IMG/VR virus record: IMGVR_UViG_2675903436_000002
Span: 1 to 18,683 of that record
Direction: 5' to 3' (one strand)
Length of the DNA stretch: 18,683 bases
Source: a virus
Taxonomy: Duplodnaviria; Heunggongvirae; Uroviricota; Caudoviricetes
The stretch's first letter is position 1, and each line of letters starts with the position of its first letter. The notes beneath the pieces were generated by a model. The model saw only the letters and a program-made list of their open reading frames with translations. It was not told where the DNA came from and searched no databases. Of this stretch, positions 1 to 18,683 are shown piece by piece. The position numbers and the translations under genes were made by a program.

Positions 1-186
1 ATGGCAGAAAGGTTCGTGAAAACGATGAAGGAAGACTACATCGCGTTCATGCCGAAACCGAATATAAGAACGGCATTGCATAATCTTGCAGTGGCGATCG
101 AACATTACAATGAAAACCATCCGCACAGTGCGTTGGGTTATCGCTCTCCGCGAGAATATCGACGTCAGCGGGTAACGTTAACTTAA
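1..186 (+). CDS. IS3-family (IS2-group) transposase OrfB, C-terminal fragment; 5' end outside window
   Basis: Translation ...[19 protein letters not shown]...[19 protein letters not shown] matches the conserved C-terminal tail of IS2-type DDE transposases (remembered InsD tail ...ESFVKTIKRDYISIMPKPD...[19 protein letters not shown]). The ORF is open to the window edge; the ATG at position 1 is coincidental. Confidence 0.7.
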
Positions 187-223
187 GATACACCCCCTGT
201 CTGGAAATAAGGGGGCAAGAACA
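1..223 (+). mobile_element. Right end of an IS3-family (IS2-like) insertion sequence; element continues beyond the left window edge
   Basis: Transposase C-terminal ORF (1..186) followed by terminal sequence TGTCTGGAAATAAGGGGGCAA (about 198..218), which resembles the IS2 right-end inverted repeat as I remember it. End coordinate is approximate. Confidence 0.6.
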
Positions 224-227
224 ATGA

Positions 228-971
228 TTAGATTCCCTGGTGAGTAAGAATTTTACTTTCTGAACTCCTCTGAGAGTATTGACTTGGAGAAACACCAAAA
301 TAACGTCTAAATACATAAGTAAAGTATGAGACACTGGCATAACCACAGACCTTAGCTACTTTACTAATAGGATAACAACGAGTGCTGAGTAAATATTCAG
401 CCATTTGCATCCTCTCATCAAGTAGGATCTTACTGAATGATACCCCCTCTTCTTTCAATTTCCTCTTTAGTAAACTTTCGCTGAGATATAATCTTGATGA
501 TATATCCTTAAGATGCCATGGTGCAGATAAATCCGTATGAATAATCGTTTTAACTTTAGCCCCTGTGCTTTTCAAACATCCAAACAGAAATACTCCAAAT
601 TGTTTTTCAGAAGAAAATGCAGAGAGACATGTAAAAGCAATAGACTCATCAAAAATTTCTATATATTCAGCACAGTGATTAGCCCAACTAATTAATCCTT
701 TAATTAAACTGAAGTCAGCAAAGTTTATTTTTAAATAAGATGGATATTCCCTACAATCAGAAATATCCCTTAAGTTATTAGCTTTCAAATAGCGACTAAT
801 AAACTCAGCGCCAAAATCCGCCACTATCACTCTTTCAGGATATGTCAGGAAAAAATCTCTATAGCTAGAGTCGACAAGTACAGATAAACCTCTATCCAGA
901 AACACACTCTCTTTTCCAAAATAAACATCAAAGGACTCCAAAATCAATATAACTGAACATGTAGTTGCCAT
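228..971 (-). CDS. AraC-family transcriptional regulator, AppY/EnvY-like (prophage-associated)
   Basis: C-terminal about 100 aa carries the two AraC HTH motifs (LKDISSRLYLSESLLKRKLKEEGVSFSKIL... and ISKVAKVCGYASVSYFTYVFRRYFGVSPSQY), resembling the DLP12-end regulators AppY/EnvY from memory. Strongly AT-rich gene. ATG at 971 has a GGTGGA SD 5-6 nt upstream; the ORF track starts at a GTG at 980. Stop lies about 5 bp from the IS terminus. Confidence 0.8.
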   Translation of the reverse strand: MATTCSVILILESFDVYFGKESVFLDRGLSVLVDSSYRDFFLTYPERVIVADFGAEFISRYLKANNLRDISDCREYPSYLKINFADFSLIKGLISWANHCAEYIEIFDESIAFTCLSAFSSEKQFGVFLFGCLKSTGAKVKTIIHTDLSAPWHLKDISSRLYLSESLLKRKLKEEGVSFSKILLDERMQMAEYLLSTRCYPISKVAKVCGYASVSYFTYVFRRYFGVSPSQYSQRSSESKILTHQGI

Positions 972-1754
972 ATCATCCACCCAATTTAACTGAAACCAGG
1001 ATGAAGTATATGCATATAAAGTTCACTTTGCCAAACTTCAGTATAAAAAACCACATAAAAAATAGGGTGTGATAAAAAATACCGTAAAAATAAAGTAAAG
1101 GATTATAAATTCCGTTACAGTTACAAATGATACTAAAGAAACAATTCCTTAGAAAACCTTATTTACAGCCAATAAGTAAGACACTTATATGATATCAAGT
1201 TTTCATAAAATATAACTAGGCTAAATAGCTGCGCCTAATACCGCTACACTTTTGCCAGCCCATGTTTGCCTCCGGGTATTGACCCCTTCTCTACGCAACT
1301 TCAGTTCCCACCACCAACTTTGCGGCAGCTTTGTAGGATCAATGTCTAAAAGAATAATGGTGACCGATAAGAAAACGACTGAATAACTGCAGATTTTCGC
1401 TCGAAACCTTCCTGTCAGATCCATAGCGAATCAAGTGCTGAATGTCACAGTATCGAACAGAAAACAGTGACGATCTAACCCTTCAAGAATATTCTACGAT
1501 TGTTCTGTTTAGGAAAAGCAAGGCGGGAAGTCGGGAGATAAGTCATTGATAAAGTGGCGGAGAGAGGGGGATTTGCCCCCCCGGTAGAGTTGCCCCTACT
1601 CCGGTTTTCGAGACCGGTCCAATCATCAAACGAAACATAAAATTAGCTCACATTATGAGGAAAAGTATCTTTTTTGTACTATGTAAATTCAAAGGCTTAG
1701 CCTCATTTCTCCGATGGTTTTCTCAACACTACTGGTTGTGAGCCCTTGCAATGA

Positions 1755-2573
<819 letters not shown>

Positions 2574-2593
2574 GTCTTTAAGTGATAAGCATA

Positions 2594-2640
2594 AACCGCA
2601 GCACGTCATGCATACGTCGTGTCTGCGGTTTTTCTTTTTT
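2594..2640 (+). terminator. Rho-independent terminator downstream of the GIY-YIG gene
   Basis: 8-bp stem AACCGCAG / CTGCGGTT (2594..2601 with 2623..2630) around a structured loop, followed by TTTTTCTTTTTT. Confidence 0.6.
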
Positions 2641-2825: not shown

Positions 2826-5800
2826 TCAATGTTCGCTTCCTGTTAACTGCCGGACAAGTGCAACCAGTTCGCTTACCTGATTTTCCAGAGTGCTGATCCG
2901 GGTGTCTGCTGTTGCCAGATTTTGACGTAGCGTTGTGTTTTCCTCTTCCAGCGCGGTAACGCGATCATCTGTTTCACGGGCGACCTGAACAAGTAAACCC
3001 GTCACGGCGGCGTAGTCAACATTAAGATAGCGCGTTTCTTCGCGTAGCTCGTTGCCGTCAACGGTCGGGCCTTGCAACTCTTCACCGTAATGAGTAAACG
3101 ATCCCACAGCTTCTGGTATCGCCTCCATTACTTCCTGTGCAATAACGCCAGCATAAGGCATCCCGTTTTCCCTGAGCGTGTAGGTGTATCCGTTCATTTT
3201 ACGGATTGCTTTCGTCGCGTCGCTGATAACGAGAATATCGTCTTTAAGGTCGCGGTCTGATGACTGATTCAGCGTTGTGCAATTAATAGCGCCATTTACA
3301 TCAAACAACTGGCCTGCTGACGTTTTTTGCGCATAAAACAGATACGCAGCAGACGTGCCAACCTCAAAAACGTTTTGTCGAGTACTGGAACCCCACACCC
3401 TGATACCAACTGGTAGTTCTGAATTACCTGAATTAAGTAAAGCAAAACGATTGCCAGTCCCTGTTTGTTTTCTAATTACTAAATCGGCAGTTGAGTTAAC
3501 CTCATCTTTGTTGATGGTTAGCGCCTGTGCTGTAGCACCGTTGACAGTACCGCTTAGTAGTTGCACCGCGCCATCATCGCCATTTAACAGCACTTGAGCG
3601 CTGCTTCTGTGGTTTTTAAGGCACAACATTTTTCCCGTGTTTTTCGATGTACCTACTGACCACGCCGAATTGGTTCCAGTGCTATCAACACCGCGCACAG
3701 CACAATTCATACTACTGTAATCTGACGTACTCCCCAGCACATCAACACGCCCGCCGCCTAATTTTGATGGAGTCGTCGAGGTTAACGACCTGACGGTTAC
3801 ATCCTGATTCCATCCTGAAACAACTACCTGACTCCACTCCGTCCAACTTCCATTGACAACAAAGCGAACGTATATGCGTTTTGTGTCGCTGCCAATCAGC
3901 GTTTGCATGATCGCATAATCTGAACCCGTAGTTTTACGAGTAGATTCTACACGTAGCAAAAAGTTACCGCTTACGCCGTCAGGCTTATTGGTAATATATG
4001 CACCACCTGCGACAGTTTTGCATTGATAGTATTTAACAGATCCAGCCACTGTATTAGCAATGATCAAGTCGTTTAAATCAATAGTCTTGTTGTCAATGGT
4101 TTCCGGCTCGATAGATCCCGCCATACCTGCGTTAAATGTGGCAAGGTCAGAAAAGGTTGTTTTACCGCCTACCGTCACCCCGCTATCGAGTTTTGCTTGT
4201 GTGATTACTTTGCTGTTTTTTGTGTGGTCAGAATAACTACCAAAATACAAATCACCGTCACCAGCTATACCTAGGTATTTTTGATCAACATCATCAACCT
4301 TAAACCCAATGGACAAGTTTTTAATTGTGTTGTTGCTCGTTAAAACCAAAGGCGTATGCTGAGATCCTTTGATGCTTACCGTAGTGTTATCGGAACTGGT
4401 GCTTGTGTTTGCAAATTCTGCGGTGGCTGCGCTGATTTTGTAAGTTATTTTTAGATTGCGGGCCTCAACCCTCCCGTCGTGGCGAACAATAAAATCACCA
4501 CTTGATTCACCTTTTGTGTTTTTCGCCCTGATGTGGATTTCGCCAAGTGATTCGTTGTTTTCAGGCGACCAAACAACGCCGCGCTCGCTTCCGTCGTTGT
4601 TCATGAACCACAGATGAGCGGTTCCTTTTGCTGATTTTAGCCTGATAGATGGCGTTTCTTTCAATATATCAAGATCACCAGACATAACATCGCCGGATTT
4701 TTTCACCTGCGCATCGTTCGTTACGTTGCCAAGTCCAACATCCGATTTCGACGGCTTGTTTGCCGAGCCGTATAGCTCATTGACGCTAAAAGTCCCGTTG
4801 TTAAGCCGGGCATCGTTGCCGGCATAGATCTTAATCTTCGCGGTTGAGTAGTCGATATTGATCGCTGACCACGTATCGCCGCACCGCGAGAATATACCAG
4901 AACCGTGGCTATAAATGGTCGCCGTGCTTCCGGTCGGCTTATCACCGCGCCAGAAATGACCACCTTTGTCACGCAGAGCTTTTAAGATCTCTACATCGCT
5001 CATCTTGCCGTTTGTTGATATCCCGCTACCGCCAAGACCGAAAGCGCCTGTAAGCATAGCATTAGAAAGACCCAAATCTGCTTTAGTCGGCTTGTTTAAC
5101 TGGTCGTAAATCCTTACAACGGGGCTTTCAACATATCCAGAAGGCGCGGCGGTTTGCTTAACAAATCCGTCTGGAATGTATAATTCCGTGCGTGCCGTCT
5201 GCGCCAGTACCGCAACCTTTGCGCCGTTGATAAATGCACGCTGGAAGGCCCAAACCTCAATAAAGCCATCATCTTTAACCAGGCCGTAACGCATTTGCAT
5301 GCTATTGATTAGCCCGGTTGGCCCTAAACGGCGTATACTCAGGTAATTCCGCTCTGCCTGCTCTTTTGCATCCTGCAAATCCTTCTGGCGTTTTTTCTCC
5401 TGAAGCTCGTTAAGACGCTGCTGATCGTACTCAACCTGAGAAGATGATGCCGTCCAGGGGAGTCTTTTCGCCCGCGACACTTTCTCCTGTAAAGCGGAAA
5501 TCTGTTCATCCAGCGAGTCTTCACGACCAATATTCATGGCCGCATCCCAGAAACGACTCCATAAATCAGACAGATACTTCAGCGTACTGCCCAGCGCATT
5601 GAGGTTATTATCAATATCCGCAGTACGCCGACCGGTTTCCTCTGCCAGTGCAGACATGGCTATCCGTGCCGCATCACTGGACCGCCCCTGTTCCCCAAGG
5701 ACGCGTATCTGCTCAAGCTGAGTGGCAGTAAGAAAATGCAGCTCATTGTCCAGAGCCTTCGCGGCATTTACAGGATCATCCTTCAGCCGCTTAAACTGAT

Positions 5801-6134
5801 TTATGGTATCGCTGACCGACTGGCCAACCGATCGCTCCATCTGTGCGGCAGCTCTCGCCACCATACCGATATCGTTTCCACGAAATGCACCACTCCCCAC
5901 CACCTGAGCCAGCGCACCGGCTGCAGCATGTTGCGTGATACCATTCCCGGAAATAGCACGACTGAGCGTCCACAGCTGCCCGGCAGTGACTCCGGCATAA
6001 TGCCCCGTCAGCGACAGCTGGCGGTTAAATTCTTCCCCCTCCTTCTGACCGTCATACCAGGCTTTACCCAGACCATAGACAGCCGCGGCAATACCGCCAA
6101 TAACCCCGCCAAGCATCATGCCTTTCGGTGACAT
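2826..6134 (-). CDS. Chimeric tail protein ORF: tape-measure (lambda H-like) N-terminal segment fused to a tail-fibre body with C-terminal intramolecular chaperone (peptidase S74-like) domain; probably a deletion-derived remnant
   Basis: First about 230 aa (hydrophobic GMMLGGVIGGIAAAVYGLGKAWYDG, then ...LSRA...DAAMNIGRED... coiled-coil) align by eye with lambda H residues about 130-350. The middle is Ser/Thr/Gly/Asn-rich with fibre-like motifs (SDVGLGNVTNDAQVKKSGDVMSGDLDI). The last 144 aa start with SDRDLKDDILVISD..., the autoproteolytic chaperone signature of endosialidase/T5 pb1-type fibres. ORF begins 6 nt after the truncated terminase stop with no RBS of its own; an ATG at 6134 and a TTG at 6137 are both possible starts. 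Confidence 0.6.
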   Translation of the reverse strand: MSPKGMMLGGVIGGIAAAVYGLGKAWYDGQKEGEEFNRQLSLTGHYAGVTAGQLWTLSRAISGNGITQHAAAGALAQVVGSGAFRGNDIGMVARAAAQMERSVGQSVSDTINQFKRLKDDPVNAAKALDNELHFLTATQLEQIRVLGEQGRSSDAARIAMSALAEETGRRTADIDNNLNALGSTLKYLSDLWSRFWDAAMNIGREDSLDEQISALQEKVSRAKRLPWTASSSQVEYDQQRLNELQEKKRQKDLQDAKEQAERNYLSIRRLGPTGLINSMQMRYGLVKDDGFIEVWAFQRAFINGAKVAVLAQTARTELYIPDGFVKQTAAPSGYVESPVVRIYDQLNKPTKADLGLSNAMLTGAFGLGGSGISTNGKMSDVEILKALRDKGGHFWRGDKPTGSTATIYSHGSGIFSRCGDTWSAINIDYSTAKIKIYAGNDARLNNGTFSVNELYGSANKPSKSDVGLGNVTNDAQVKKSGDVMSGDLDILKETPSIRLKSAKGTAHLWFMNNDGSERGVVWSPENNESLGEIHIRAKNTKGESSGDFIVRHDGRVEARNLKITYKISAATAEFANTSTSSDNTTVSIKGSQHTPLVLTSNNTIKNLSIGFKVDDVDQKYLGIAGDGDLYFGSYSDHTKNSKVITQAKLDSGVTVGGKTTFSDLATFNAGMAGSIEPETIDNKTIDLNDLIIANTVAGSVKYYQCKTVAGGAYITNKPDGVSGNFLLRVESTRKTTGSDYAIMQTLIGSDTKRIYVRFVVNGSWTEWSQVVVSGWNQDVTVRSLTSTTPSKLGGGRVDVLGSTSDYSSMNCAVRGVDSTGTNSAWSVGTSKNTGKMLCLKNHRSSAQVLLNGDDGAVQLLSGTVNGATAQALTINKDEVNSTADLVIRKQTGTGNRFALLNSGNSELPVGIRVWGSSTRQNVFEVGTSAAYLFYAQKTSAGQLFDVNGAINCTTLNQSSDRDLKDDILVISDATKAIRKMNGYTYTLRENGMPYAGVIAQEVMEAIPEAVGSFTHYGEELQGPTVDGNELREETRYLNVDYAAVTGLLVQVARETDDRVTALEEENTTLRQNLATADTRISTLENQVSELVALVRQLTGSEH

Positions 6135-6142
6135 CAATGTGT

Positions 6143-6538
6143 CTATCCATCCGGCACGGTTACCGCCGCACTGCTTCTGAACGTTCTGTCGAGGCGCTTT
6201 TTAGAATGCTCGCGGGCCTTATCTTCGGTCATCTGCACAACGAGCATGTCCGAAGGATCGCAAACGATGGTATAGACAATCCATCCATCGATCAGACCAA
6301 TGGTCTTCCCTGTTCGCGCAGGACCAACAAAAATCACCGCATCGTATTCACGCGATGCCAGGCAGTTCATGGGCTCAATGATGTAGGGTGTCAGTTCAGG
6401 ATCCCATGGCACCGAGTTACCAGCCCCCTTGGGAACACGCATGAATTTTTTAACAGCCTCCGAAATCGGCATGCGACGTGGTGGGGAAAATCCTGCCGAT
6501 ATGTCCCTTCCCAAATTTCGGGCTGATGAAAAACCCAT
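6143..6538 (-). pseudogene. Terminase large subunit (GpA family), N-terminal 131-codon fragment
   Basis: Contains a Walker-A-like VGPARTGKT and an N-terminal pattern comparable to lambda gpA (VKSARVGYSK region). Strong SD AGGAGG before the ATG at 6538. ORF stops after 131 codons, where intact GpA-type terminases run about 640 aa. Start is positioned directly after the small-terminase stop. Confidence 0.6.
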
Positions 6539-7074: not shown

Positions 7075-7249
7075 AAGCAACTCCATCTGGCAGGTGAAAA
7101 TCAGGTTTATTTATATATTTCAATTAATTGCAAACTGGTCTAATGACAGGGAGAAAAAAATATTGTACAGGTAAAAAGAGAAATAACTTTTAATTATCAA
7201 TAAATTACCTAACATGCTGCCGCCGCCATGGAAATGCAAAAACTAGCCT

Positions 7250-7275
7250 TTTTCCGCGACGCTCCCGCCCCGTGG
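7250..7275 (-). other. cos-like site (cosN homolog) of the prophage
   Basis: Minus-strand sequence ACGGGGCGGGAGCGTCGCGG resembles lambda cosN (ACGGGGCGGCGACCTCGCGG, from memory), at the expected distance upstream of the small terminase gene. Confidence 0.45.
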
Positions 7276-7826
7276 CAGGCCCCCCCACCGGGAGGACCCG
7301 TCAGCCTGACAGCCATGACGAACGTCTGATACAGCCCTTGCATGAATGGCATCGGGATAATCCAGAAAGGAATAGCATCGACCCACAAAAATCTGTGTGA
7401 GTGTCCTGTTTCTTCCCCCCCCCCGCACAGGACTGGCGAGCATGAGGGACAACCCCGCGAACCATAACCGCGCTGATGACAGGACTGGCCCGGCTTGTAT
7501 TGCTTCCAGCCTTCGCTTTTGTGGCTTTTGCAATAGCCTGACGGATCTGTGGTGGTATTGCGGTAGCCGCGAACACGGCAGGTTTTTGGGGTTCGTGGGG
7601 GCATATGTACTCCAATGAAGAAGCCACCAACATAGCCTCCTCCATTCATCGTGAAACTATTTTCATCTACCCAGTAATGAATTCTTTGAAGAGTTGTGAT
7701 CAATACAACTCGCTAATGGAGAGGCTTGTCTCACACGTGAGACAAGCTTCCTGTTTGATTTACTGGACAGTATAGGAGGACAGAATGCCTTCCTCACTCG
7801 AATAACATCAATTAAGGAGGTTCAAC

Positions 7827-7949
7827 ATGTTTCATTCCACAAGTCATCAGGCTGTAATTATGGCAGCATCAGTTTGTGCCAAAGACCTTTTCCGCTTCAC
7901 TTTGAGCCTGATTCATTTCTACCTGACCGGCTCGCCTCTATCTTTTTAA
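7827..7949 (+). CDS. Small hypothetical ORF (40 aa) upstream of bor
   Basis: ATG preceded by a near-consensus SD AAGGAGG at 7 nt spacing; product MFHSTSHQAVIMAASVCAKDLFRFTLSLIHFYLTGSPLSF. Not in the ORF track because it is under 60 aa. No homolog recognised. Confidence 0.2.
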   Translation: MFHSTSHQAVIMAASVCAKDLFRFTLSLIHFYLTGSPLSF

Positions 7950-8129
7950 TCCCCGCTTTATCCAAATTGCATTGCCATAATGCCGACAACACACTGACAT
8001 TCAAATCCAGACTACCTCCAATAGTCTGACCGTACACCTATATAGTTTTAATTTTCATCAATCCATTTAACTATCGTTTAATTGTTGTCACATAGGATTC
8101 TGCTGTTTTTAACAATACAGGATAATAAG

Positions 8130-8423
8130 ATGAAAAAAATGTTGTTTTCTGCCGCTCTGGCAATGCTTATTACAGGATGTGCTCAACAGACGTTTACTGT
8201 TGGAAACAAACCGACAGCAGTAACACCAAAGGAAACCATCACCCATCATTTCTTCGTTTCGGGAATTGGACAGGAGAAAACTGTTGATGCAGCCAAAATT
8301 TGTGGCGGCGCAGAAAATGTTGTTAAAACAGAAACCCAGCAAACATTCGTAAATGGATTGCTCGGTTTTATTACTTTAGGCATTTATACTCCGCTGGAAG
8401 CGCGTGTGTATTGCTCACAATAA
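8130..8423 (+). CDS. bor: Bor lipoprotein (serum-resistance, Bor/Iss family)
   Basis: MKKMLFSAALAMLITGCAQQTFTV... with lipobox LITGC; near-identical to lambda Bor as I remember it. Convergent with Rz as in lambda. The ORF track start at 8082 is an upstream in-frame alternative. Confidence 0.9.
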   Translation: MKKMLFSAALAMLITGCAQQTFTVGNKPTAVTPKETITHHFFVSGIGQEKTVDAAKICGGAENVVKTETQQTFVNGLLGFITLGIYTPLEARVYCSQ

Positions 8424-8454
8424 TTGCATGAGTTGCCCATCGATATGGGCAGCT

Positions 8455-8916
8455 CTATCTGCACTGCTCATTAATATACTTCTGGGTTCCTTCCAGTTGT
8501 TTTTGCATAGTGATCAGCCTCTCTCTGAGGGTGAAATAATCCCGTTCAGCGGTGTCTGCCAGTCGGGGGGAGGCTGCATTATCCACGCCGGAGGCGGTGG
8601 TGGCTTCACGCACTGACTGACAGACTGCTTTGATGTGCAACCGACGACGACCAGCGGCAACATCATCACGCAGAGCATCATTTTCAGCTTTCGCATCAGC
8701 TAACTCCTTCGTGTATTTTGCATCGAGCGCAGCAACATCACGCTGACGCATCTGCATGTCAGTAATTGCCGCGTTCGCCAGCTTCAGTTCTTTGGCATTT
8801 TTGTCGCGCTGGGCTTTATAGGTAATGGCGTTATCACGGTAATGATTAACAGCCCATGACAGGCAGACGATGATGCAGATAACCAGAGCGGAGATAATCG
8901 CGGTTACTCTGTTCAT
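8455..8916 (-). CDS. rzpD: Rz i-spanin (inner-membrane spanin subunit)
   Basis: [21 protein letters not shown]... N-terminal TM followed by a charged coiled-coil; matches DLP12 RzpD / phage 21 Rz from memory. ATG at 8916 overlaps the endolysin stop (ATGA). Confidence 0.85.
8514..8696 (-). CDS. rzoD: Rz1 o-spanin lipoprotein, embedded in the +1 frame of Rz
   Basis: [23 protein letters not shown]... with lipobox VVGC and a proline-rich stretch ([13 protein letters not shown]), entirely inside Rz in a different frame. Confidence 0.75.
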
Positions 8917-9410
8917 TGCTGACCCCACAAACAGATTTCACGCTCAATCTCACGACGAGTCATGAGACCTTTCCATTGCTTACCGCCAGCATATGTCCAG
9001 CGACGTAACTGATCACATGCGCCTTTGATATCGCCCTGGTTTATTTTGCGAAGAAGCGTCGATGTTCTGAAATTGCCAGCACCCACGTTGTAAACGAATG
9101 AGTAAAGAGCGCCGCGCGTTGTTTCCGGTATATCGACTTCGATGTATGGGTTAATTTGTCTGGCGACAGTGGCAAGGTCTTTATTCAAGAGTGCTTTGCA
9201 TTCTGCTTTGGTATACGTTTTACCGAGCATGATGTCTTTTCCTGTATGCCCGTGACATACGGTCCATACACCAACAATATCTTTGTATGGTATGTAGCTG
9301 ACACCTTCCAGACCATCGTTACCACTTGGGCCAGTGATTAACACTGATGCTATAGCAATTGCTCCGCCACCAATAGCAGCAGCAACTGCTTTTCGTAATG
9401 ATGGAGGCAT
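8913..9410 (-). CDS. rrrD: SAR endolysin (T4-lysozyme-like muramidase with signal-anchor-release N-terminus)
   Basis: N-terminal Gly/Ala-rich weakly hydrophobic SAR segment ([20 protein letters not shown]) followed by a lysozyme-like domain; matches DLP12 RrrD / phage 21 R from memory. Start overlaps the holin stop. Confidence 0.9.
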
Positions 9411-9625
9411 TATTCACCTCTCGCAGCCTTGCGCTTATCTTCTTTAATCTTGAAATAAAGGTTTGTCAGGTACGTCAGCAAGCCAAATACCAGACTACCC
9501 AGCACACCTATTGCCGCCCACTGTGAGGGCGTGACTTTATCGAGCAGCTGTAAAAACCAGTAACCGGCACTACCTGCTGAGGTGCCATAGGCGACACCCG
9601 TTGTTAACTTATCCATGGATTTCAT
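9410..9625 (-). CDS. essD: Class II holin (phage 21 S / EssD-like) with dual-start motif
   Basis: [26 protein letters not shown]... with two TM segments; Met1-Lys-Ser-Met4 dual start typical of holin/antiholin pairs; SD GAGGTGG upstream of the ATG at 9625. The ORF track start at 9670 is 15 codons further upstream. Confidence 0.85.
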
Positions 9626-10214
9626 AACCCCACCTCGCAGACAAAGCGGGTGTAAATTGAGGGAATACAACGTATCGCAAAAAAGCAGAAACGTAACAGA
9701 CTCGGAGTCAGTGAATAACTCAGGTATTGAGTTATCAGCTAATATCGAGACTCAAAAAATGGAAAAACCAGCTCGACGGCGGGTTTAAGCTGTGTGACGA
9801 AGTAACCACTCTTAACAGCATAACCAATTTTTTACGTACGTAAACCACTGAATGATATTTATGAGAATGCTACCGAGTGTTCAAAACACCACCACAAATA
9901 CATAAGAAAACCTCAACAAATAACTAACAAATAATTTCCAGTGTTATTTTTAGCCGATTTAAATTGAATCTTCAAATTATAGAGCACTTATAAATAACAG
10001 CCGTTAATATAAATTGGCTAATAGATTTATTTTTATTCAGCCAAGAGCTATGAATAGGATTCGATAGAAAAAAGTTCAGATAAAAATAGAGATCTACTTC
10101 ACAAATCAAACGAGAAACCAAAACTTACATCTTGAAATAATCACATTGATTAGATGAATATTTATCGCGCAGTGACATCATTTTTTAATAATAGTTCAAA
10201 AAAAAGGGCTCACG

Positions 10215-11312
10215 ATGAAAAAATTAACAGTGGCAATTTCTGCTGTAGCTGCATCAGTACTGATGGCGATGTCTGCTCAGGCAGCTGAAATTTATAATAA
10301 AGACAGTAACAAGCTGGATCTGTACGGGAAAGTTAATGCTAAGCACTACTTCTCCTCTAATGATGCAGATGATGGTGATACTACTTATGCCCGTCTTGGC
10401 TTCAAAGGTGAAACCCAAATCAACGATCAACTGACTGGTTTCGGTCAGTGGGAATATGAATTCAAAGGCAACCGCGCTGAATCTCAAGGTTCCTCCAAAG
10501 ATAAAACCCGTCTTGCCTTCGCTGGCCTGAAATTCGGTGACTACGGCTCCATCGATTACGGCCGTAACTACGGTGTAGCATACGACATCGGTGCGTGGAC
10601 TGACGTCCTGCCAGAATTCGGTGGTGACACTTGGACTCAAACCGACGTGTTCATGACTCAACGTGCAACTGGTGTTGCAACCTATCGTAACAACGACTTC
10701 TTTGGTCTGGTTGATGGTCTGAACTTTGCTGCTCAGTACCAAGGCAAAAACGATCGTAGCGATTTCGATAACTACACTGAAGGTAACGGTGATGGCTTCG
10801 GTTTCTCTGCTACCTATGAATACGAAGGATTCGGTATCGGTGCAACTTATGCGAAATCTGATCGTACCGACACTCAAGTTAATGCAGGGAAAGTTCTTCC
10901 TGAAGTATTTGCTTCCGGTAAAAATGCAGAAGTTTGGGCCGCAGGTCTGAAATATGACGCTAACAACATTTACCTGGCCACTACCTATTCTGAAACCCAG
11001 AATATGACTGTATTTGCTGATCACTTCGTTGCTAATAAAGCCCAAAACTTCGAAGCTGTTGCACAATATCAGTTCGATTTCGGTCTGCGTCCGTCCGTTG
11101 CTTACCTGCAATCTAAAGGTAAGGATCTTGGAGTATGGGGCGATCAGGACTTAGTCAAATATGTTGATGTAGGTGCAACCTATTACTTCAACAAAAATAT
11201 GTCTACTTTCGTTGATTACAAAATCAACCTGCTTGACAAAAATGACTTCACTAAAGCACTCGGTGTAAGCACTGATGACATCGTTGCTGTAGGTCTGGTT
11301 TACCAGTTCTAA
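10215..11312 (+). CDS. nmpC: Prophage-encoded OmpC-family general porin (NmpC/Lc/OmpD-like), apparently intact
   Basis: 365 aa with signal peptide [23 protein letters not shown], porin motifs and a C-terminal ...VGLVYQF ending in Phe. Located between Q and the holin on the opposite strand, as nmpC is in DLP12 and lc in PA-2. Confidence 0.9.
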
Positions 11313-11478
11313 TCTGATTACGAAAAAGATATGTTGCGGGAGGCGTTGCCTCCCCAACATATAAGTGGCTCCCTCAAGCCACTTCCTTTAGAAGCACAAC
11401 CTTGCTTCTAACTATATAAACCTTCTGTTATATATTACCCTTTATTTTTGGGGGCGTCTCAACGCCCCATTTTTAATA
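11312..11478 (+). ncRNA. Possible IpeX-like small RNA / porin 3' UTR hairpin cluster ending in a rho-independent terminator
   Basis: Four consecutive hairpins: 11338..11354 (GGGAGGC/GCCTCCC), 11363..11384 (AAGTGGCT/AGCCACTT), 11389..11410 (TAGAAGCA/TGCTTCTA) and 11450..11468 (GGGGGCG/CGCCCC) followed by ATTTTTAATAATTTTT. In DLP12 the sRNA IpeX maps to the nmpC 3' end (from memory); boundaries here are guesses. Confidence 0.3.
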
Positions 11479-11501
11479 ATTTTTAGTAAACAATTGGCAT
11501 A

Positions 11502-11885
11502 TTAATTAGAGTTATTAACAACGATATCCATCTCTAACCGGATATCTAATGCCATTAACATCCCTTCAATTATGCCCTCAGCCTTCTGTAACCTTTTCCC
11601 GATATAACCATCAGAGCAGCAATGCTTACCTGCCAGTGACATGAATGTCATACCGACTACATAATAATCTACTAATAAATCGTGCAAATCGCTGTTGTTC
11701 TTTTTCAGACGGGCCATGCACCCGCAAATAATCATCGCGTCATCGTCACAACATTGCGGGCGAGATTTTACTTTTGAAGTAATTAATCCCTTAAAACCGG
11801 CGGCAATGGACGACCAGGTCACATCTTCATGATTATTAGCCGCCCACGCTCCCCAACGCTCAAGAACCATCTGAATATCACGCAT
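11502..11885 (-). CDS. quuD: Late-gene antiterminator Q (phage 82 / QuuD-like)
   Basis: [24 protein letters not shown]...[16 protein letters not shown]... matches DLP12 QuuD from memory. ATG at 11885 has a GGAG SD; the ORF track start at 11900 is a TTG. Confidence 0.85.
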
Positions 11886-11970
11886 CAACTTACTCCACAA
11901 AAATCAGACCAGAACGCCAATTACAAGCAAAAATCAACAAAACAGTATTAGTTGATTGTTATCTCTGACT

Positions 11971-12111
11971 TCATACTCCTGCTCCTGTCAGGGTTTTGGC
12001 GTAATTCTTCAGTATTCGGTAATCGGTCAAAACAGAACCGGGGAAACGATATAAGCGCAGATGCCCCCAGCGGTGGCGAAGAAGTTCTGCCATATAAAAC
12101 TCAAACATCAT
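11971..12111 (-). CDS. ylcG: Small nin-region protein, YlcG-like (46 aa)
   Basis: [46 protein letters not shown]; start overlaps the rusA stop. Not in the ORF track (under 60 aa); derived by manual reverse-complement translation. Confidence 0.5.
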
Positions 12112-12470
12112 TCATTCCCAATTTCGGTGATGGTCAGTTCCAGCCTCCCACCTTTGGTAACAGGCATCTTCACAACGCGGTAATCAACGACCTGAGCATC
12201 ATCCAGCCAGAAACCTGCTTTAGTGAGTGCGTCAAAAGCGGCTTTTTGCAGATTATCCAGGTCACGGCGACGGCGATCCGGCATGTGGCACTCAATGCGG
12301 ATTTTCACAGGCATAGCCAAGCCGATATCCAGCATTGCGTTTTTAATGATTCGGGCGACGTTATCGCGGTATGCCTGCCCCTCTGCGCTGACGTGCGTGC
12401 GCCCGCGATTATGGCGGTAATAGCGATTATTGCTCGGAGGCCAGGGTAATGTGATGCTGTAGGTATTCAC
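12108..12470 (-). CDS. rusA: RusA Holliday-junction resolvase
   Basis: 120 aa [36 protein letters not shown]..., essentially the RusA sequence as remembered; start overlaps the upstream gene's stop (ATGA). Confidence 0.9.
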
Positions 12471-12757
12471 GCCTTAATAACCCCCTCTTTCAGCCAGATA
12501 ACCTGTGTTCTCGCCATACCTTCCAGCGCGCATTCTTTTGCATATGCAGCATCGACAAAATGTGTGCGGCGGTCGATTTCGTCGTGGCAGGCAGAACATG
12601 CAATGGTGGCAATCAGGTCTGGCGGTTTGGTACCGGTGCCGCACAATCCAGTCAGCCGGATATGTGCCAGTACAGACGTTTCAGGGTTGCCATTACATAC
12701 GCCAGGGATTCTTACCTGGCATTCCCGACTACGCGCTGCTTTTCTCAAATCAGCCAT
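12467..12757 (-). CDS. ybcO: DUF1364-family nin-region protein (YbcO-like, putative nuclease)
   Basis: [47 protein letters not shown]...[11 protein letters not shown] with Cys/His-rich motif. ATG at 12757 has an AGGAGG SD and overlaps the ninE-like ORF end. Confidence 0.75.
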
Positions 12758-12920
12758 GATTCCTCCTTGCTGCCAGTCGCAACCATTTTTTATCAACCAG
12801 GCTGGCGGTATATCCGAGCAGTGTTGGTATTTCGGAAGGCTTCAGCTCCGGTTTACGCTTACGACGATTTGGTACTCTGTAGATGTGTCCGTTCATGACA
12901 CGAATAAGCGGTGTAGCCAT
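12750..12920 (-). CDS. ninE: NinE-like small protein (56 aa)
   Basis: Manual translation [56 protein letters not shown]; basic KRKP...W..WLR pattern like lambda NinE; start overlaps the ninB-like stop (ATGA). Not in the ORF track. Confidence 0.5.
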   Translation of the reverse strand: MATPLIRVMNGHIYRVPNRRKRKPELKPSEIPTLLGYTASLVDKKWLRLAARRNHG

Positions 12921-13375
12921 TACGCCTCCTGCTTGTCACGGAGCAGCTGGAACTCGCAGCTCTGCGGAATAGTCAGGTGGCAGCCAATATTCATCGCCCA
13001 GGCTTCAACCTTACACAGGAAGACATACATCTCTCCGGTATCAAGATCGGAGGTATGGCGTAACGACTGGATCGTAGTGATTTCGCCGGTTACGACATCA
13101 ACCAGGTCCTTGGTTTCATAACCGAGGTATGTGTGTTTGAGAGCATCTTTTACCCATGCTGCAGTAGCGAACGATTTCCCCCTGCTGATGAGGTACTCAC
13201 TGATTTCGCTGTACCACATGTGGCTGAGTGCATTCTGGGAAAGACTGCGTCTTTCGCGCCACGGTTTAAGCGCCATGCGAAAGCATTTGCCGTCCTCCAG
13301 ATAAGGCTGGATCTGCTGACCGATAGCGGTGAAGTTACCGCGATGCAATTTGATACCGTCTTGTGGGAGGTTCAC
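12920..13375 (-). CDS. ybcN: NinB-family recombination protein (YbcN-like)
   Basis: 151 aa; ...[22 protein letters not shown]... parallels the NinB RSLDQNRKLW motif. GTG start at 13375 with GGAGGTG SD. Confidence 0.8.
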
Positions 13376-13539
13376 GCTTCACCTCCGCAGAGGTCAAACG
13401 TTGGATGCAAAAAAACGCAGGTGCATTTCTGCATCTGTGAAGGGAGAAGAGAGTTTGGATTGTATATGCGCATAAACGTCCCCGTTTAGCGCAGAAGTCA
13501 CCGGAGTTGTTCAGGCTCCGATGACATGATTATGGCGGG

Positions 13540-13908
13540 TTGATTATGGAAAATCAATCAAGCTATGTTTCATCGGCGAGGTCATCATCTGTGACAATCA
13601 TGAGGTTAAAGAATGAAATAATGTTTATCTATGACAAGGATGAAGCTGAGCGCATTGTCGAAAATACCGCATACACTGCAGAACGTCAGCCGGAACGCGA
13701 CATCACTCCGGTTAACGATGAAACCATGCAGGAGATTAACACTCTGCTGATTGCCCTGGATAAAACATGGGATGACGACTTATTGCCGCTCTGTTCCCAG
13801 ATATTTCGCCGCGACATTCGCGCATCGTCAGAACTGACACAGGCCGAAGCAGTGAAAGCTCTTGGATTCCTGAAACAGAAAGCCACTGAGCAGAAGGTGG
13901 CAGCATGA
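13540..13908 (+). pseudogene. bet: 5'-truncated bet (Red-beta) remnant; only the C-terminal about 95 codons are Bet-derived
   Basis: From about 13627 the translation IYDKDEAERIVENTAYTAERQPERDITPVNDETMQEINTLLIALDKTWDDDLLPLCSQIFRRDIRASSELTQAEAVKALGFLKQK..EQKVAA matches the lambda Bet C-terminus; the upstream 29 codons of the ORF are unrelated sequence. Confidence 0.7.
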
Positions 13909-14585
13909 CACCGGACATTATACTGCAGCGTACCGGGATCGACGTGAGAGCTGTCGAACAGGGGGATGATGCATGGCACAAATTACGGCTCGGCGTCATC
14001 ACCGCTTCAGAAGTTCACAACGTGATAGCAAAGCCCCGATCAGGAAAGAAGTGGCCTGACATGAAAATGTCCTACTTCCACACCCTGCTGGCTGAGGTTT
14101 GCACCGGTGTGGCTCCGGAAGTTAACGCTAAAGCGCTGGCCTGGGGAAAACAGTACGAGAACGACGCCAGAACCCTGTTTGAGTTCACTTCCGGCGTAAA
14201 TGTTATTGAATCCCCGATCATCTATCGCGACGAAAGTATGCGCACCGCCTGCTCTCCCGATGGTTTATGCAGTGACGGCAATGGCCTTGAGCTGAAATGC
14301 CCGTTTACCTCCCGGGATTTCATGAAGTTCCGGCTCGGTGGTTTCGAGGCCATAAAGTCGGCTTACATGGCCCAGGTGCAGTACAGCATGTGGGTGACGC
14401 GAAAAGATGCCTGGTACTTTGCCAACTATGACCCGCGCATGAAGCGTGAAGGCCTGCATTATGTCGTGGTTGAGCGGGATGAAAAGTACATGGCGAATTT
14501 TGACGAGATGGTGCCGGAGTTCATCGAAAAAATGGACGAGGCACTGGCTGAAATTGGTTTTGTATTTGGGGAGCAATGGCGATGA
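13905..14585 (+). CDS. exo: Lambda-type exonuclease (Red-alpha)
   Basis: 226 aa [40 protein letters not shown]..., near-identical to lambda Exo as remembered; start overlaps the bet stop (ATGA). Confidence 0.9.
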
Positions 14586-14764
14586 AGCATCCTCGCGATA
14601 ATATCCGGGTAGGCGCGATCACTTTCGTCTACTCCATTACAAAGCGAGGCTGGGTATTTCCCGGCCTTTCTGTTATCAGAAATCCACTGAAAGCACAGCG
14701 GCTGGCTGAGAAGATAAATAATAAACGGGAGGCGGTATGCACAAAGCATCTCCTGTTGAGTTAA
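14576..14764 (+). CDS. Hypothetical early-region protein (62 aa)
   Basis: ORF overlapping the exo stop; an alternative ATG at 14582 forms an ATGA overlap with exo. No family recognised. Confidence 0.35.
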
Positions 14765-14928
14765 GAACGAGTATTGAGATGGCACATAGCCTTGCTCAAA
14801 TTGGAGTCAGGTTTGTGCCAATACCAGTAGAAACAGACGAAGAATTTCATACGTTAGCCACATCCCTTTCACAAAAGCTGGAAATGATGGTGGCGAAAGC
14901 AGAAGCAGATGAGAGAGACCAGGTATGA
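14737..14928 (+). CDS. Hypothetical early-region protein (63 aa)
   Basis: ATG preceded by a GGGAGG SD; acidic small protein, no family recognised. Confidence 0.45.
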   Translation: MHKASPVELRTSIEMAHSLAQIGVRFVPIPVETDEEFHTLATSLSQKLEMMVAKAEADERDQV

Positions 14929-15008
14929 CAACCACTGAATGCATTTTTCTGGCAGCGGGCTTCATATTCTGTGTGCTTATGCTTGCCGGCATGGGGCTTG
15001 TTCAGTGA
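14925..15008 (+). CDS. Putative small hydrophobic membrane peptide (27 aa)
   Basis: MTTTECIFLAAGFIFCVLMLAGMGLVQ; ATG overlaps the upstream stop (ATGA) and its stop overlaps a downstream GTG (GTGA), suggesting translational coupling. Not in the ORF track. Confidence 0.3.
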   Translation: MTTTECIFLAAGFIFCVLMLAGMGLVQ

Positions 15009-15220
15009 CACCTCAGCAAGAAAACGCCCTTCGCAGCATTGCCCGTCAGGCTAATTCTGAAATCAAAAAAGCCAGACAGCAGTTTCCGGATAAAAACGTC
15101 GATGACATTTGCCGTAGCGTACTAAAGAAGCACCGCGAAACGGTAACGCTGATGGGATTCACACCGACTCATTTAAGCCTGGCGATCGGCATGTTGAACG
15201 GCGTCTTTAAGGAACGATGA
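15005..15220 (+). CDS. Hypothetical early-region protein (frame of track ORF 14939..15220)
   Basis: GTG at 15005 overlaps the small-peptide stop; the ORF track starts the same frame at the ATG at 14939. Start uncertain, no family recognised. Confidence 0.35.
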   Translation: MTPQQENALRSIARQANSEIKKARQQFPDKNVDDICRSVLKKHRETVTLMGFTPTHLSLAIGMLNGVFKER

Positions 15221-15241
15221 ACATGAAAAGCAAAATCATCA

Positions 15242-15263
15242 GGGAGCTACAGGCTCCTTTTTT
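15242..15263 (+). terminator. Rho-independent terminator
   Basis: Stem GGAGC / GCTCC with a 5-nt loop followed by TTTTTT. Confidence 0.5.
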
Positions 15264-15318
15264 ATTATTCGCATTTACCCTCAAGCGTATTAACCAACAA
15301 TTCAGGGATTAATGAAAG

Positions 15319-15537
15319 ATGGCAGACATCATTGATTCAGCATCAGAAATCGAAGAATTACAGCGCAATACAGCAATAAAAATGCGTCGTCTGAACTACC
15401 AGACTGTATCCGCAACTCATTGTTGTGAGTGTGGCGATCCGATAGATGAGCGAAGACGCCTGGCTGTTCAGGGTTGTCGGACTTGTGCAAGTTGCCAGGA
15501 GGAGATCGAACTTAAGAACAAACAATGGGGACTGTGA
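15319..15537 (+). CDS. TraR/DksA-family C4 zinc-finger protein
   Basis: CCECGDPIDERRR...GCRTCASCQEE four-cysteine motif in a 72-aa protein, typical of phage TraR-like proteins encoded near xis. Confidence 0.65.
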   Translation: MADIIDSASEIEELQRNTAIKMRRLNYQTVSATHCCECGDPIDERRRLAVQGCRTCASCQEEIELKNKQWGL

Positions 15538-15863
15538 TGGCCTCAAAGCAGCAAATTTCAACATCGTCCAACTGGGGTGTAAAAATGTTCAGAATCATTT
15601 TTCCTAACACCTGGTACGTCGACCACCACGGCACTCCCTGCAAAATCCTGCGTTCTACCCACAACAAAGTTCACTACATCCGAAAAGGCAGAACATGTAT
15701 CGCCAGCATGTTCCGCTTTAATCATGACTTTGAACCTGTGAATAAAGCTGATGCAGATCGGATAGCAGAAGAGATCGAAACGGCAGAACACATTAAGAAG
15801 TTACGTGACATGCGTTCAAAAAGCAGAGGTAACCATGGAATCATACAGCCTCACACTCGATGA
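15537..15863 (+). CDS. Hypothetical protein (108 aa)
   Basis: ATG overlaps the TraR-like stop, with a GGGGA SD-like sequence upstream; no family recognised. Confidence 0.4.
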   Translation: MASKQQISTSSNWGVKMFRIIFPNTWYVDHHGTPCKILRSTHNKVHYIRKGRTCIASMFRFNHDFEPVNKADADRIAEEIETAEHIKKLRDMRSKSRGNHGIIQPHTR

Positions 15864-16185
15864 GGCCTGTCAGTTTCTTAAGATATCCAGACCAACCGCC
15901 ACCAACTGGATACGAACAGGCCGCCTACAGGCAACACGTAAAGATCCAACCAAGCCAAAATCTCCTTACCTCACAACACGGCAAGCCTGCATTGCGGCGC
16001 TTCAGTCTCCGCTGCATACTGTCCAGGTGAGCGCGGGTGATGGCATAACAGAGGAAAGAAAATGTCACTCTTCCGCAGAAGTGAAATATGGTACGCCAGT
16101 TTCACATTGCCGAACGGTAAAAGATTTAAACAGTCTCTTGGAACAAAGGACAAAAGGCAGGCGACAGAGCTCCATGACAAGCTAA
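15835..16185 (+). CDS. xis: Excisionase (Xis, P22-type, winged-helix)
   Basis: [31 protein letters not shown]... HTH typical of Xis/AlpA-like excisionases; 116 aa; AGAGG SD; 3' end overlaps the int start. Confidence 0.7.
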
Positions 16186-17225
16186 AGGCTGAAGCATGGC
16201 GGGTCAGCAAACTTGGTGAAATACCTGATATAACGTTCGAGGAAGCGTGTGTCAGGTGGCTTGAAGAGAAAGCACATAAAAAATCACTGGACGATGACAA
16301 AAGCCGGATCGGATTCTGGCTTCAACATTTCGCAGGAATGCAACTAAGAGACATTACTGAATCAAAAATTTATTCAGCAATGCAGAAAATGACGAACCGG
16401 CGTCATGAGGAAAACTGGAAACTCAGGGCAGAAGCATGCAGAAAAAAAGGGAAACCTGTTCCAGAATACACGCCAAAACCAGCGTCCGTTGCAACGAAGG
16501 CTACGCATCTTTCATTTATAAAGGCCCTACTAAGAGCCGCAGAGCGTGAATGGAAAATGCTGGATAAGGCACCAATTATTAAAGTGCCCCAACCAAAGAA
16601 TAAACGGATCCGCTGGCTGGAGCCCCATGAAGCACAAAGACTGATTGATGAATGTCCGGAGCCATTAAAGTCTGTTGTTGAATTTGCACTGGCAACAGGC
16701 CTAAGACGCTCGAACATCATCAACCTTGAATGGCAACAAATAGATATGCAGCGCCGGGTGGCATGGATAAACCCGGAAGAGAGTAAATCAAACCGCGCAA
16801 TTGGCGTTGCGCTGAATGATACTGCATGTCGCGTACTGAAAAAACAAATCGGGAATCATCACCGTTGGGTATTTGTGTACAAGGAAAGCTGTACCAAACC
16901 AGACGGAACGAAAGCGCCAGCAGTAAGGAAGATGCGGTATGACGCAAACACAGCCTGGAAAGCGGCGCTGAGACGGGCTGGTATTGATGATTTCAGATTT
17001 CACGACTTGAGACACACCTGGGCAAGTTGGCTGGTTCAAGCCGGAGTCCCGTTGTCAGTGTTACAGGAAATGGGAGGCTGGGAGTCTATCGAAATGGTTC
17101 GTCGATATGCTCACCTTGCACCTAATCACCTTACCGAACACGCACGGCAAATAGACTCGATCCTGAACCCATCGGTCCCAAATTTGTCCCAGTCAAAAAA
17201 TAAGGAAGGTACTAATGATGTGTAA
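16062..17225 (+). CDS. int: Tyrosine integrase, P22-type (thrW-specific)
   Basis: 387 aa [41 protein letters not shown]... with C-terminal [39 protein letters not shown] catalytic region; very close to P22 Int as remembered; ends 14 nt from the tRNA 3' end. Confidence 0.92.
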
Positions 17226-17239
17226 CTTATTGATTTAAA

Positions 17240-17315
17240 TGGTGCCGATAATAGGAGTCGAACCTACGACCTTCGCATTACGAATGCGCTGCTCTACCAA
17301 CTGAGCTATATCGGC
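17240..17315 (-). tRNA. thrW: tRNA-Thr (anticodon CGU), thrW-like; prophage attachment site at its 3' end
   Basis: Reverse complement GCCGATATAGCTCAGTTGGTAGAGCAGCGCATTCGTAATGCGAAGGTCGTAGGTTCGACTCCTATTATCGGCACCA folds as a canonical 76-nt tRNA with anticodon CGT and encoded CCA. Confidence 0.95.
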
Positions 17316-17429
17316 CCTGAAAGGACATGTTCACGAACGTGAATCACGGTGGGCAAGGTTAAAACTAACCGGGCGATGCGTCAATGGCCTTGTGAATCAA
17401 ATGGCTACTTTTGCATCACCCGGTTTTAT

Positions 17430-18683
17430 TTACGCACGAATGGTGTAATCACCAATGCCGATCCACTTGTAAGTGGTCAGTGCTTCCAGCCCCATTGGGC
17501 CACGCGCGTGGAGTTTTTGTGTGCTTACCGCCACTTCCGCACCCAGACCAAACTGGCCGCCGTCGGTAAAACGCGTAGAGGCGTTAACGTAAACAGCGGA
17601 CGAATCCACTTCGTTAACAAAACGCTGGGCGTTGCGCATATCGCGGGTCAGGATCGCATCGGAGTGTTGTGTGCCGTGTTCACGAATATGGGCGATGGCA
17701 TCGTCAAGATCGCTGACGATTTTGACGTTCAAATCTAATGACAGAAACTCATCGTCATACTCTTCGGCTTTAACAGCAACCACCTTCGCAGGGCCTGCCT
17801 GCAACTGCGCCAGTGCAGCTGCATCTGCGTGTAATGTCACGCCGCTTTCCGCCATTTGTTTGCTTAATGCGGGCAGGAAGCTATCGGCGATGTTTTTATT
17901 CACCAGCAACGTTTCAACCGTATTACATGTGCTCGGACGCTGAGTTTTCGCGTTGACGATCACTTTTAATGCTTCAGCGATCTCTACACTTTCATCAACG
18001 TAAATATGGCATACGCCTATACCACCTGTGATCACCGGGATTGTCGACTGTTCACGGCACAGTTTATGCAAACCAGCGCCACCACGCGGGATCAGCATGT
18101 CGATGTATTTATCCATACGCAGCATTTCACTGACCAGCGCACGGTCAGGATTATCAATCGCCTGCACGGCACCCGCCGGTAAGCCGCAGGATTTCAGGGC
18201 GTCCTGAATCACCGCCACCGTTGCAGCGTTAGTGCGACACGTTTCTTTGCCACCGCGCAGGATCACCGCATTACCGGTTTTCAGGCACAGCGAAGCGACA
18301 TCAACCGTCACGTTCGGGCGCGCTTCATAAATCACGCCAATAACCCCCAGCGGTACGCGACGACGCTCAAGACGCAGGCCGCTGTCCAGTACGCCGCCAT
18401 CGATTACCTGCCCCACCGGATCGGCGAGGTTGCACACCTGACGTACATCGTCGGCAATGCCTTTCAGCCGTGCGGGCGTCAGTGCCAGACGGTCAAGCAT
18501 CGCTTCGCTAAGGCCATTGGCTCGCGCGTCAGCAACATCCTGGGCGTTAGCGTTGAGGATGATTTCGCTTTGTGCTTCCAGTTCATCGGCGATTTTTTCC
18601 AGCACGCGATTTTTTTCGCGGCTGGAGAGTTGCGCTAATTTATACGAGGCTTGCTTCGCGGCAATGCCCATTTGTTCCAGCAT
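17430..18683 (-). CDS. proA: Gamma-glutamyl phosphate reductase (ProA)
   Basis: 417 aa starting [38 protein letters not shown]..., an aldehyde-dehydrogenase-fold protein matching E. coli ProA; start codon is the last three bases of the window. Confidence 0.95.

Follow-up and report, generated by a model that had tools for sequence, protein, structure and literature searches.

At positions 13626/13627 of the window, by which we mean the whole stretch of 18,683 nucleotides that was analysed, the 3' part of bet is joined to the nin region of a lambdoid prophage. We consider, with a probability of about 0.9, that this join was left by one illegitimate deletion, some 8.5–8.7 kb long, in a lambdoid prophage located at thrW, next to proA. 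The deletion would have run from inside a gene coding for a protein of 169 amino acids, upstream of orf33 and ybcN, to codon 168/169 of bet. The flanks keep the order and the orientation that they have in intact prophages, which is explained most simply by one internal deletion; the most parsimonious reading is a single event, although it is indistinguishable from a series of successive deletions. An earlier note on this DNA had proposed that the immunity and replication region was deleted and that a truncated bet was joined to the nin region, and the comparison with intact relatives supports this interpretation. The junction adds one more example to a familiar class of events, in which a DLP12-like cryptic prophage has lost its immunity and replication region.

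Position and sequence of the junction

When window 12800–14700 was compared by megablast to 5,426 complete Escherichia coli genomes and 50,697 phage records, the homology to bet and exo (98–99.3% identity) was found to begin at window 13626, which is base 827 of the query. On the other side, a sensitive search of the complete E. coli genomes with window 13340–13660 shows that the homology to the nin region ends at 13627, and that window 13340–13627 is identical (288/288) to an intact prophage of E. coli SCU-104. The two homologies were brought together in a direct three-way alignment, in which the window was compared to the intact prophages of strains SF-468 and SCU-104 on both flanks, and the overlap between the two sides consists of TA alone. 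The nin-side parent departs after ...AATAATGTTTA, the bet-side parent matches from TATCTATGACAAGG... onward, and the deletion junction, which has no strand, is at 13626..13627, the dinucleotide TA being common to both parents. According to the same alignment, there is neither filler DNA nor a remnant of an insertion sequence (IS) at 13626/13627: both sides are native up to the TA. The left breakpoint is inside the gene of the 169-amino-acid protein and the right breakpoint is at codon 168/169 of bet. As both flanks align with intact prophages over long collinear stretches, at 96–100% identity, the matches cannot be put down to chance.

These results refine the earlier note, which had described a breakpoint interval at 13376–13627 and called for a nucleotide alignment of the junction. 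The break is real, but it is not an interval: the alignment to intact prophages gives a single-point join with an overlap of TA, and the rest of 13376–13627 is native, as seen from the 288-nucleotide match. That the homology to bet starts near 13627, at about residue 165, agrees with what we find (homology from 13626, the first whole codon being that of Ile169), and the start of a ninB-like gene at 13375 is also borne out by the list of open reading frames, in which ybcN occupies 12920–13375 on the minus strand.

An overlap of two nucleotides is expected in approximately 16% of blunt joins, from (k+1)(1/4)^k(3/4)^2; it is so common by chance that the joining mechanism cannot be narrowed beyond "illegitimate". 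We rejected an imperfect direct repeat (14/17 positions, at 13587–13603 and 13627–13643) as a possible cause of the deletion, since both copies are kept and the repeat is 40 nucleotides off the join.

Among the 5,426 complete E. coli genomes, the best coverage is 90%, ending at the junction, and none spans it. The 36-mer that spans this join, GAATGAAATAATGTTTATCTATGACAAGGATGAAGC, has no exact match in the GTDB species representatives, in IMG/VR or in the JGI metagenomes (zero in each). On the other hand, window 8920–17375 is identical (8,456/8,456) to contig LONX01000018.1 of the draft assembly GCA_001575275.1. As judged from these searches, the junction is a lineage-specific event, and the deletion seems to be fairly recent, given that the sequences right beside it are fully identical to intact alleles.

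Lost DNA and other possible origins of the junction

The two breakpoints are 8,684 bp apart in the intact prophage of SF-468, which occupies the same thrW/proA site, and 8,500 bp apart in that of SCU-104. In the relatives, this interval contains most of the gene of the 169-amino-acid protein, ea22-like genes and small open reading frames, ren, P, the gene of an O-type replication protein, a YdaT gene or a gene in the position of cII, a cro-like helix–turn–helix gene, a repressor gene of the S24 or XRE type, one or two morons, the gene of a kil-type division inhibitor (KilR), gam, and codons 1–168 of bet. We infer the size and the content of the lost DNA from these relatives, which are mosaic. 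The relatives that share the Exo protein of the window carry varied immunity modules, including a true lambda-like one with N, cIII, Kil, cI, cro and cII, and the immunity type of the ancestor can therefore not be known.

Nothing of this interval was found elsewhere in the window. All stop-to-stop segments of at least 40 amino acids from the immunity and replication intervals of 11 relatives, 843 segments in total, were compared to the window by tblastn and none gave a match at E ≤ 1e-3, while the positive controls of the same search (Bet, Exo and the 169-amino-acid protein) behaved as expected. There is no repressor or replication protein either among the unassigned open reading frames of the window, according to Pfam and PHROGs. 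The earlier note had named the presence of an intact repressor or replication module nearby as the observation that would refute it: tblastn, Pfam and PHROGs detect none within the window. Its statement that everything from gam to ren is absent is right in that respect; its list of genes, on the contrary, holds by analogy with lambda only, as the closest relatives have a different set, with an S24 or XRE repressor and genes of the YdaS/YdaT type.

Three other origins of the junction were considered, of which a recombinational mosaic is the one that survives best. The join would then result from recombination of two lambdoid elements, such as a remnant already in the chromosome and a phage arriving later. 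The lambdoid prophages at thrW/proA are indeed strongly mosaic: the remnant of SCU-118 shares window 1–2628, 7459–12556 and 14608–18683 with 98–99% identity and has a different nin segment. It is also the case that the alleles on the two sides of the junction have different closest relatives, SCU-104 on the nin side (100% over 288 nucleotides) and other strains on the bet side (99.3%). However, exchanges between phages at homologous or short homologous sequences join equivalent positions and leave genes whole, whereas here the 3' end of an unrelated gene, in the opposite orientation, abuts the middle of a domain of Bet, with two nucleotides shared. The 14/17 repeat described above, of which neither copy was lost, was not a mediator, and there is no phage with this arrangement among the 50,697 records, where no place covers at least 80%. 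We consider that an exchange of this sort is very improbable.

That the junction is an artefact of the assembly, in which separate pieces of one or two prophages were misjoined, is less probable again. The assembly GCA_001575275.1 is a draft, and the exact junction is seen neither in the three collections searched with the 36-mer nor in the complete E. coli genomes, which speaks for a misjoin. Against this, misjoins arise at repeats, and the two sides here share two nucleotides only; the junction is deep within a contig of 284 kb that is recorded for two samples (these are perhaps not independent); the order and the orientation of the flanks fit a simple deletion, and comparable deletions are present in finished genomes. 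Last, and least probable of the three, a deletion caused by a transposable element or by a site-specific recombinase could be imagined from the IS3 and IS5 elements found in equivalent regions of related remnants, but at 13626/13627 we see neither an IS end nor an inverted repeat nor a target duplication, and five deletions of this core with five distinct pairs of endpoints speak against a specific site.

Sequences retained on either side of the junction

The sequence to the left of the junction (13376–13627) is, as far as its alignment to intact prophages goes, native DNA of the nin region upstream of ybcN, with no leftover of the deleted genes. The ybcN gene itself (orf151, a putative member of the NinB/Orf family; 12920..13375, minus strand) is intact, codes for 151 amino acids from a GTG start, and opens the retained nin-Q block as its first large gene. 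The exact YbcN protein is present in 389 blocks of public assemblies, and the homologous genes at the same position are annotated as ybcN in the RefSeq E. coli genomes. The Pfam NinB score of the protein (21.0 bits) is under the cut-off of 23.8. YbcN has been described as a highly diverged relative of Orf, encoded three genes upstream of rusA (PMC4118853), and ybcN has the same position relative to rusA in the window. It is preceded by orf33/ylcH (13372..13473, minus strand), which is intact, has 33 codons and a ribosome-binding site upstream, and overlaps the start of ybcN; its homologue bears the name orf33 in the phage 82 record X92588 and ylcH in DLP12 of K-12. We note a terminator-like hairpin inside orf33 (13413–13436), which is weak, with three G–C pairs and a T run within the stem.

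Upstream of orf33, a promoter-like element (13529..13557, minus strand) consists of a -35 hexamer TTGATT, a spacer of 17 nucleotides and a -10 hexamer CATAAT, with a score of 9/12 in a consensus scan, and points into orf33-ybcN-ninE-ybcO-rusA-ylcG-quuD. The scan as a whole returned 7 sites, compared to 4.7 ± 2.2 in shuffled sequence, which is no excess overall, so that the case for this element is made by its conservation and by the annotation of phage 82: it coincides with the putative -35 and -10 sequences annotated in X92588, and the conservation of both hexamers extends to K-12 DLP12, phage 82 and two intact prophages. Directly downstream of the -10 hexamer is an inverted repeat with arms of 10 nucleotides, GTCATCGGAG-N9-CTCCGGTGAC (13497..13525, minus strand). 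When the features of X92588 are mapped across, it corresponds to a "possible regulator-binding site", and it is invariant save for one position in five aligned sequences (phage 82, K-12 DLP12 and three thrW-type prophages). This repeat could be an operator, a hairpin in the 5' part of the RNA, or a terminator for upstream genes. In the whole window, tRNA is the sole Rfam family at the gathering threshold, hence no Rfam family covers the repeat.

Between the promoter-like element and the junction lies what is left of the gene of the 169-amino-acid phage protein (WP_000017329, phrog_1779): its last 20 codons and its stop, 65 nucleotides on the minus strand (13563..13627). A tblastn search with this protein returns 17 identical residues out of 17 at 13613–13563. 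The intact gene is at 12224–12733 in one relative locus (L003), where the match to the window ends at 12288, and a gene for a protein of 169 amino acids is at this position in all nine loci shown that have this YbcN allele, except the source contig. In terms of annotation, the 250 bp upstream of ybcN should be regarded as native regulatory sequence rather than junk.

On the right of the junction, the truncated gene bet' (13627..13908, plus strand) consists of codons 169–261 and the stop; it has neither its own start codon nor the codons of residues 1–168. The first whole codon (13627–13629) is that of Ile169 of the 261-amino-acid Bet, and the 93 retained residues are identical to Bet 169–261 of an intact relative. 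In Bet, residues 1–177 form the oligomerisation and annealing domain and residues 183–261 the domain that binds Exo and SSB (PMC6393309). What is retained in bet' is therefore the last nine residues (169–177) of the annealing domain, the linker and the whole C-terminal three-helix domain that binds Exo and SSB, while the N-terminal annealing domain of Red-beta (1–177) is otherwise gone and no match to Pfam RecT is left in the open reading frame. We infer from this that the deletion inactivated Bet. The sequence of bet' matches the crystallised constructs of the Bet C-terminal domain, PDB 8tfu and 6m9k, across both whole chains with one substitution. The full domain that binds Exo and the SSB tail is thus common to bet' and to the constructs, but the latter were designed, whereas bet' is a promoterless genomic remnant behind 29 accidental codons and its product is putative.

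These codons belong to a 122-codon fusion open reading frame (13540..13908, plus strand), which starts with TTG, contains in-frame ATG codons at 13546, 13600 and 13621, and is made of 29 new codons (antisense of the nin-side DNA) followed by Bet 169–261. It is probably accidental and not expressed. No gene is called at this position in the source assembly, no exact protein record was found for the 120-amino-acid product starting at ATG 13546, and the consensus scan gives no promoter-like site on the plus strand upstream of it. A good terminator after the porin gene (11451–11468) makes read-through from that gene into bet'-exo unlikely. The region 13540–13908 should carry the label bet pseudogene. 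The profile phrog_12233 ("RecT-like ssDNA annealing protein", 158 positions) matches residues 21–122 of the fusion frame, in essence the C-terminal part of Bet that is kept, with E = 6e-57; truncated genes such as bet' may be the source of this profile, or else it may stand for a short form of the protein that exists on its own.

The next gene, exo (13905..14585, plus strand), codes for a lambda exonuclease of the YqaJ family; it is intact, with 226 amino acids, and its start overlaps the stop of bet (ATGA). The exact Exo protein is found in 1,370 assembly blocks, mostly in intact prophages. In the window, exo would have lost its pL-type promoter with the deletion. One may imagine that the scar has acquired a function: bet' would be translated from one of the accidental starts (13546, 13600 or 13621), along with the intact and translationally coupled exo. 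The free C-terminal domain of Bet would then bind Exo and the SSB tail, with the result that recombination in the host would be altered or the Red systems of incoming lambdoid phages disturbed; the smaller alternative would be that the conserved promoter-like element and inverted repeat at 13497–13557 are an autonomous, regulated promoter of the nin-Q operon, independent of phage immunity. We hold such a function to be very improbable.

The rest of the window is a lambdoid prophage in reverse orientation relative to the map of lambda. It is bordered by proA (17430–18683, minus strand, at the window end), which with its flanks is 98–99% identical to E. coli, and by a tRNA-Thr(CGT) (17240–17315, minus strand), beside which is the tyrosine integrase gene int (16062–17225, plus strand). 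Leftward of int, the plus strand contains an excisionase-like helix–turn–helix gene, a DUF4222 gene, a TraR/DksA gene, DUF1382 and DUF1317 genes, exo and bet'. Away from the junction in the other direction, the minus strand contains orf33/ylcH, ybcN, ninE, ybcO, rusA, ylcG and quuD, beyond which are a porin gene (plus strand), then essD, rrrD and rzpD (minus strand), and bor (plus strand). This order, int-xis...exo-bet' followed by ybcN...Q-porin-lysis, matches that of annotated prophages, with the integrase gene adjoining the tRNA attachment site; together with the loss of lytic-cycle functions and of morphogenesis genes, it is that of a cryptic prophage.

The morphogenesis genes were lost in a second large deletion, at 2826–6538. 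A fragment of 131 amino acids from the N-terminal part of the large terminase (6143–6538, minus strand; positions 2–87 of the 247 of Pfam GpA_ATPase) is 5 nucleotides from an open reading frame of 1,103 codons (2826–6137, minus strand), which begins at position 69 of a tape-measure profile, ends in a Peptidase_S74 tail-fibre chaperone domain and looks like a tape-measure/tail-fibre chimera. There are no portal, capsid or head genes between the two according to Pfam, and no exact protein record was found for the 1,102-amino-acid chimera or for the terminase fragment. Nearby, an open reading frame of 164 codons (7209–7703, minus strand) has a weak match to an HNH-endonuclease PHROG, over residues 31–82 only; the annotation of SCU-118 describes the corresponding gene as a truncated HNH endonuclease, and the frame in the window, too, is probably a pseudogene.

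At the far end of the remnant are a gene for an AraC-family regulator (228–980, minus strand) and one for a protein with a LEM-3-like GIY-YIG nuclease domain (phrog_5356; 1800–2573, plus strand). SCU-118 and G4/9 have the same two genes, adjoining an IS fragment and paoD; these genes may be cargo or have a role in defence. The thrW att repeat has no copy of 12 nucleotides or more in the window, so the other end of the prophage is not defined here.

Probable consequences of the deletion and comparison with other prophages

Judging from the relatives, the deletion would have removed in one step the repressor, the early promoters and operators, the antiterminator, kil, gam, the replication genes with the origin, and the annealing domain of Bet. 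The cell would have survived since the repressor was lost together with everything it held in check: as its target promoters are gone too, the loss of the repressor derepresses nothing. The prophage would now be locked in, with no induction, no replication and no repressor-based immunity. Two intact blocks are retained, nin-Q-porin-lysis and exo-to-int, and ybcN through quuD as well as the lysis cassette are all full length. Neither block would have an early promoter, and nin-Q would keep only the weak promoter-like element.

Regarding expression, rusA of DLP12 is quiescent until the insertion of IS2 or IS10 provides a promoter (PMC1636454), and adequate expression of the rusA operon of DLP12 is said to need insertions that supply a promoter (PMC4118853). 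The lysis cassette of DLP12 is reportedly controlled by a Q-type antiterminator, RpoE and Hha (PMC7918800). Since the window has the same promoter-like element as DLP12, we would guess that it behaves likewise: by analogy, the nin-Q genes should be quiescent, and the lysis cassette should be under the control of Q, RpoE and Hha, not of phage immunity. It is reasonable to suppose, as the earlier note did, that silence results from the lack of an adequate upstream promoter or from host factors. The nin, Q, lysis and Red/int genes would have been left as silent cargo after the deletion of the core.

Four other E. coli prophage remnants carry independent deletions of the same core, and their endpoints are all different. 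In MLI110/MB06021, located at the lambda attB site near ybhC, the middle of ybcN is joined to bet at about codon 119, with an overlap of 5 nucleotides. In SCU-118/CPE35, at thrW, with flanks 98–99% identical to the window, the middle of ninB is joined to DUF1317'. In G4/9, also at thrW, P' is joined to gam, and in DLP12 of K-12, at the argU site, exoD' is joined to peaD'. Like the window, MLI110, SCU-118 and G4/9 have lost the central early region and kept Q and the lysis genes, the deletion reaching from the red/gam/DUF1317 block to the P/nin block, but their breakpoints are not those of the window. Common to these deletions is that the early promoters, the antiterminator, kil and the replication functions went along with the repressor. 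Since the endpoints all differ, there is no recombination hot spot. It may be that this reflects the selection of survivors, the deletion of the repressor being viable only if the early core that it controls goes too. This is in line with the accepted picture of prophage "grounding" and domestication, which has been reviewed (PMC6379469). We note that the thrW/proA remnants of SCU-118 and G4/9 have the outer parts of the window with 98–99% identity, each with its own morphogenesis remnants.

The window is one more well-defined case of a lambdoid prophage becoming a harmless resident, and alone it matters little. The comparative value of five independent deletions spanning one core is modest, and the thrW/proA locus is suited to a small study of the parallel decay of prophages.

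The intact prophages of SF-468 and SCU-104 show what the window has lost. On either side of the junction they agree with the window in sequence (94–100% identity), in orientation and in the order of the genes, and SF-468 has the same int-thrW-proA end; unlike the window, they keep the 8.5–8.7 kb with the repressor, the cro-like gene, O, P, ren, kil, gam and the full bet, as well as head and tail genes.

DLP12, on the contrary, resembles the window in what was lost. Window 8076–13557 is 96.5–97.5% identical to bor..ylcH of K-12 DLP12, and the block ylcH-ybcN-ninE-ybcO-rusA-ylcG-quuD-porin-essD-rrrD-rzpD-bor is the same in both; the homology ends exactly at the -35 hexamer (13557). DLP12 too is devoid of the immunity region, a truncated Red gene meeting the replication/nin side (exoD'-peaD'), and its terminase fragment also adjoins tail genes (aaaD'-tfaD), the counterpart in the window being 6143–6538 next to 2826–6137. 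The two prophages differ by their integration sites (argU for DLP12, thrW/proA for the window) and by the extent of the deletion: in the window exo is whole, the C-terminal domain of Bet is kept, and P and ren are gone, whereas DLP12 has a truncated exo, no bet, and fragments of P and ren. Unlike DLP12, the window has no IS, emrE or ybcK-M cargo between the two arms.
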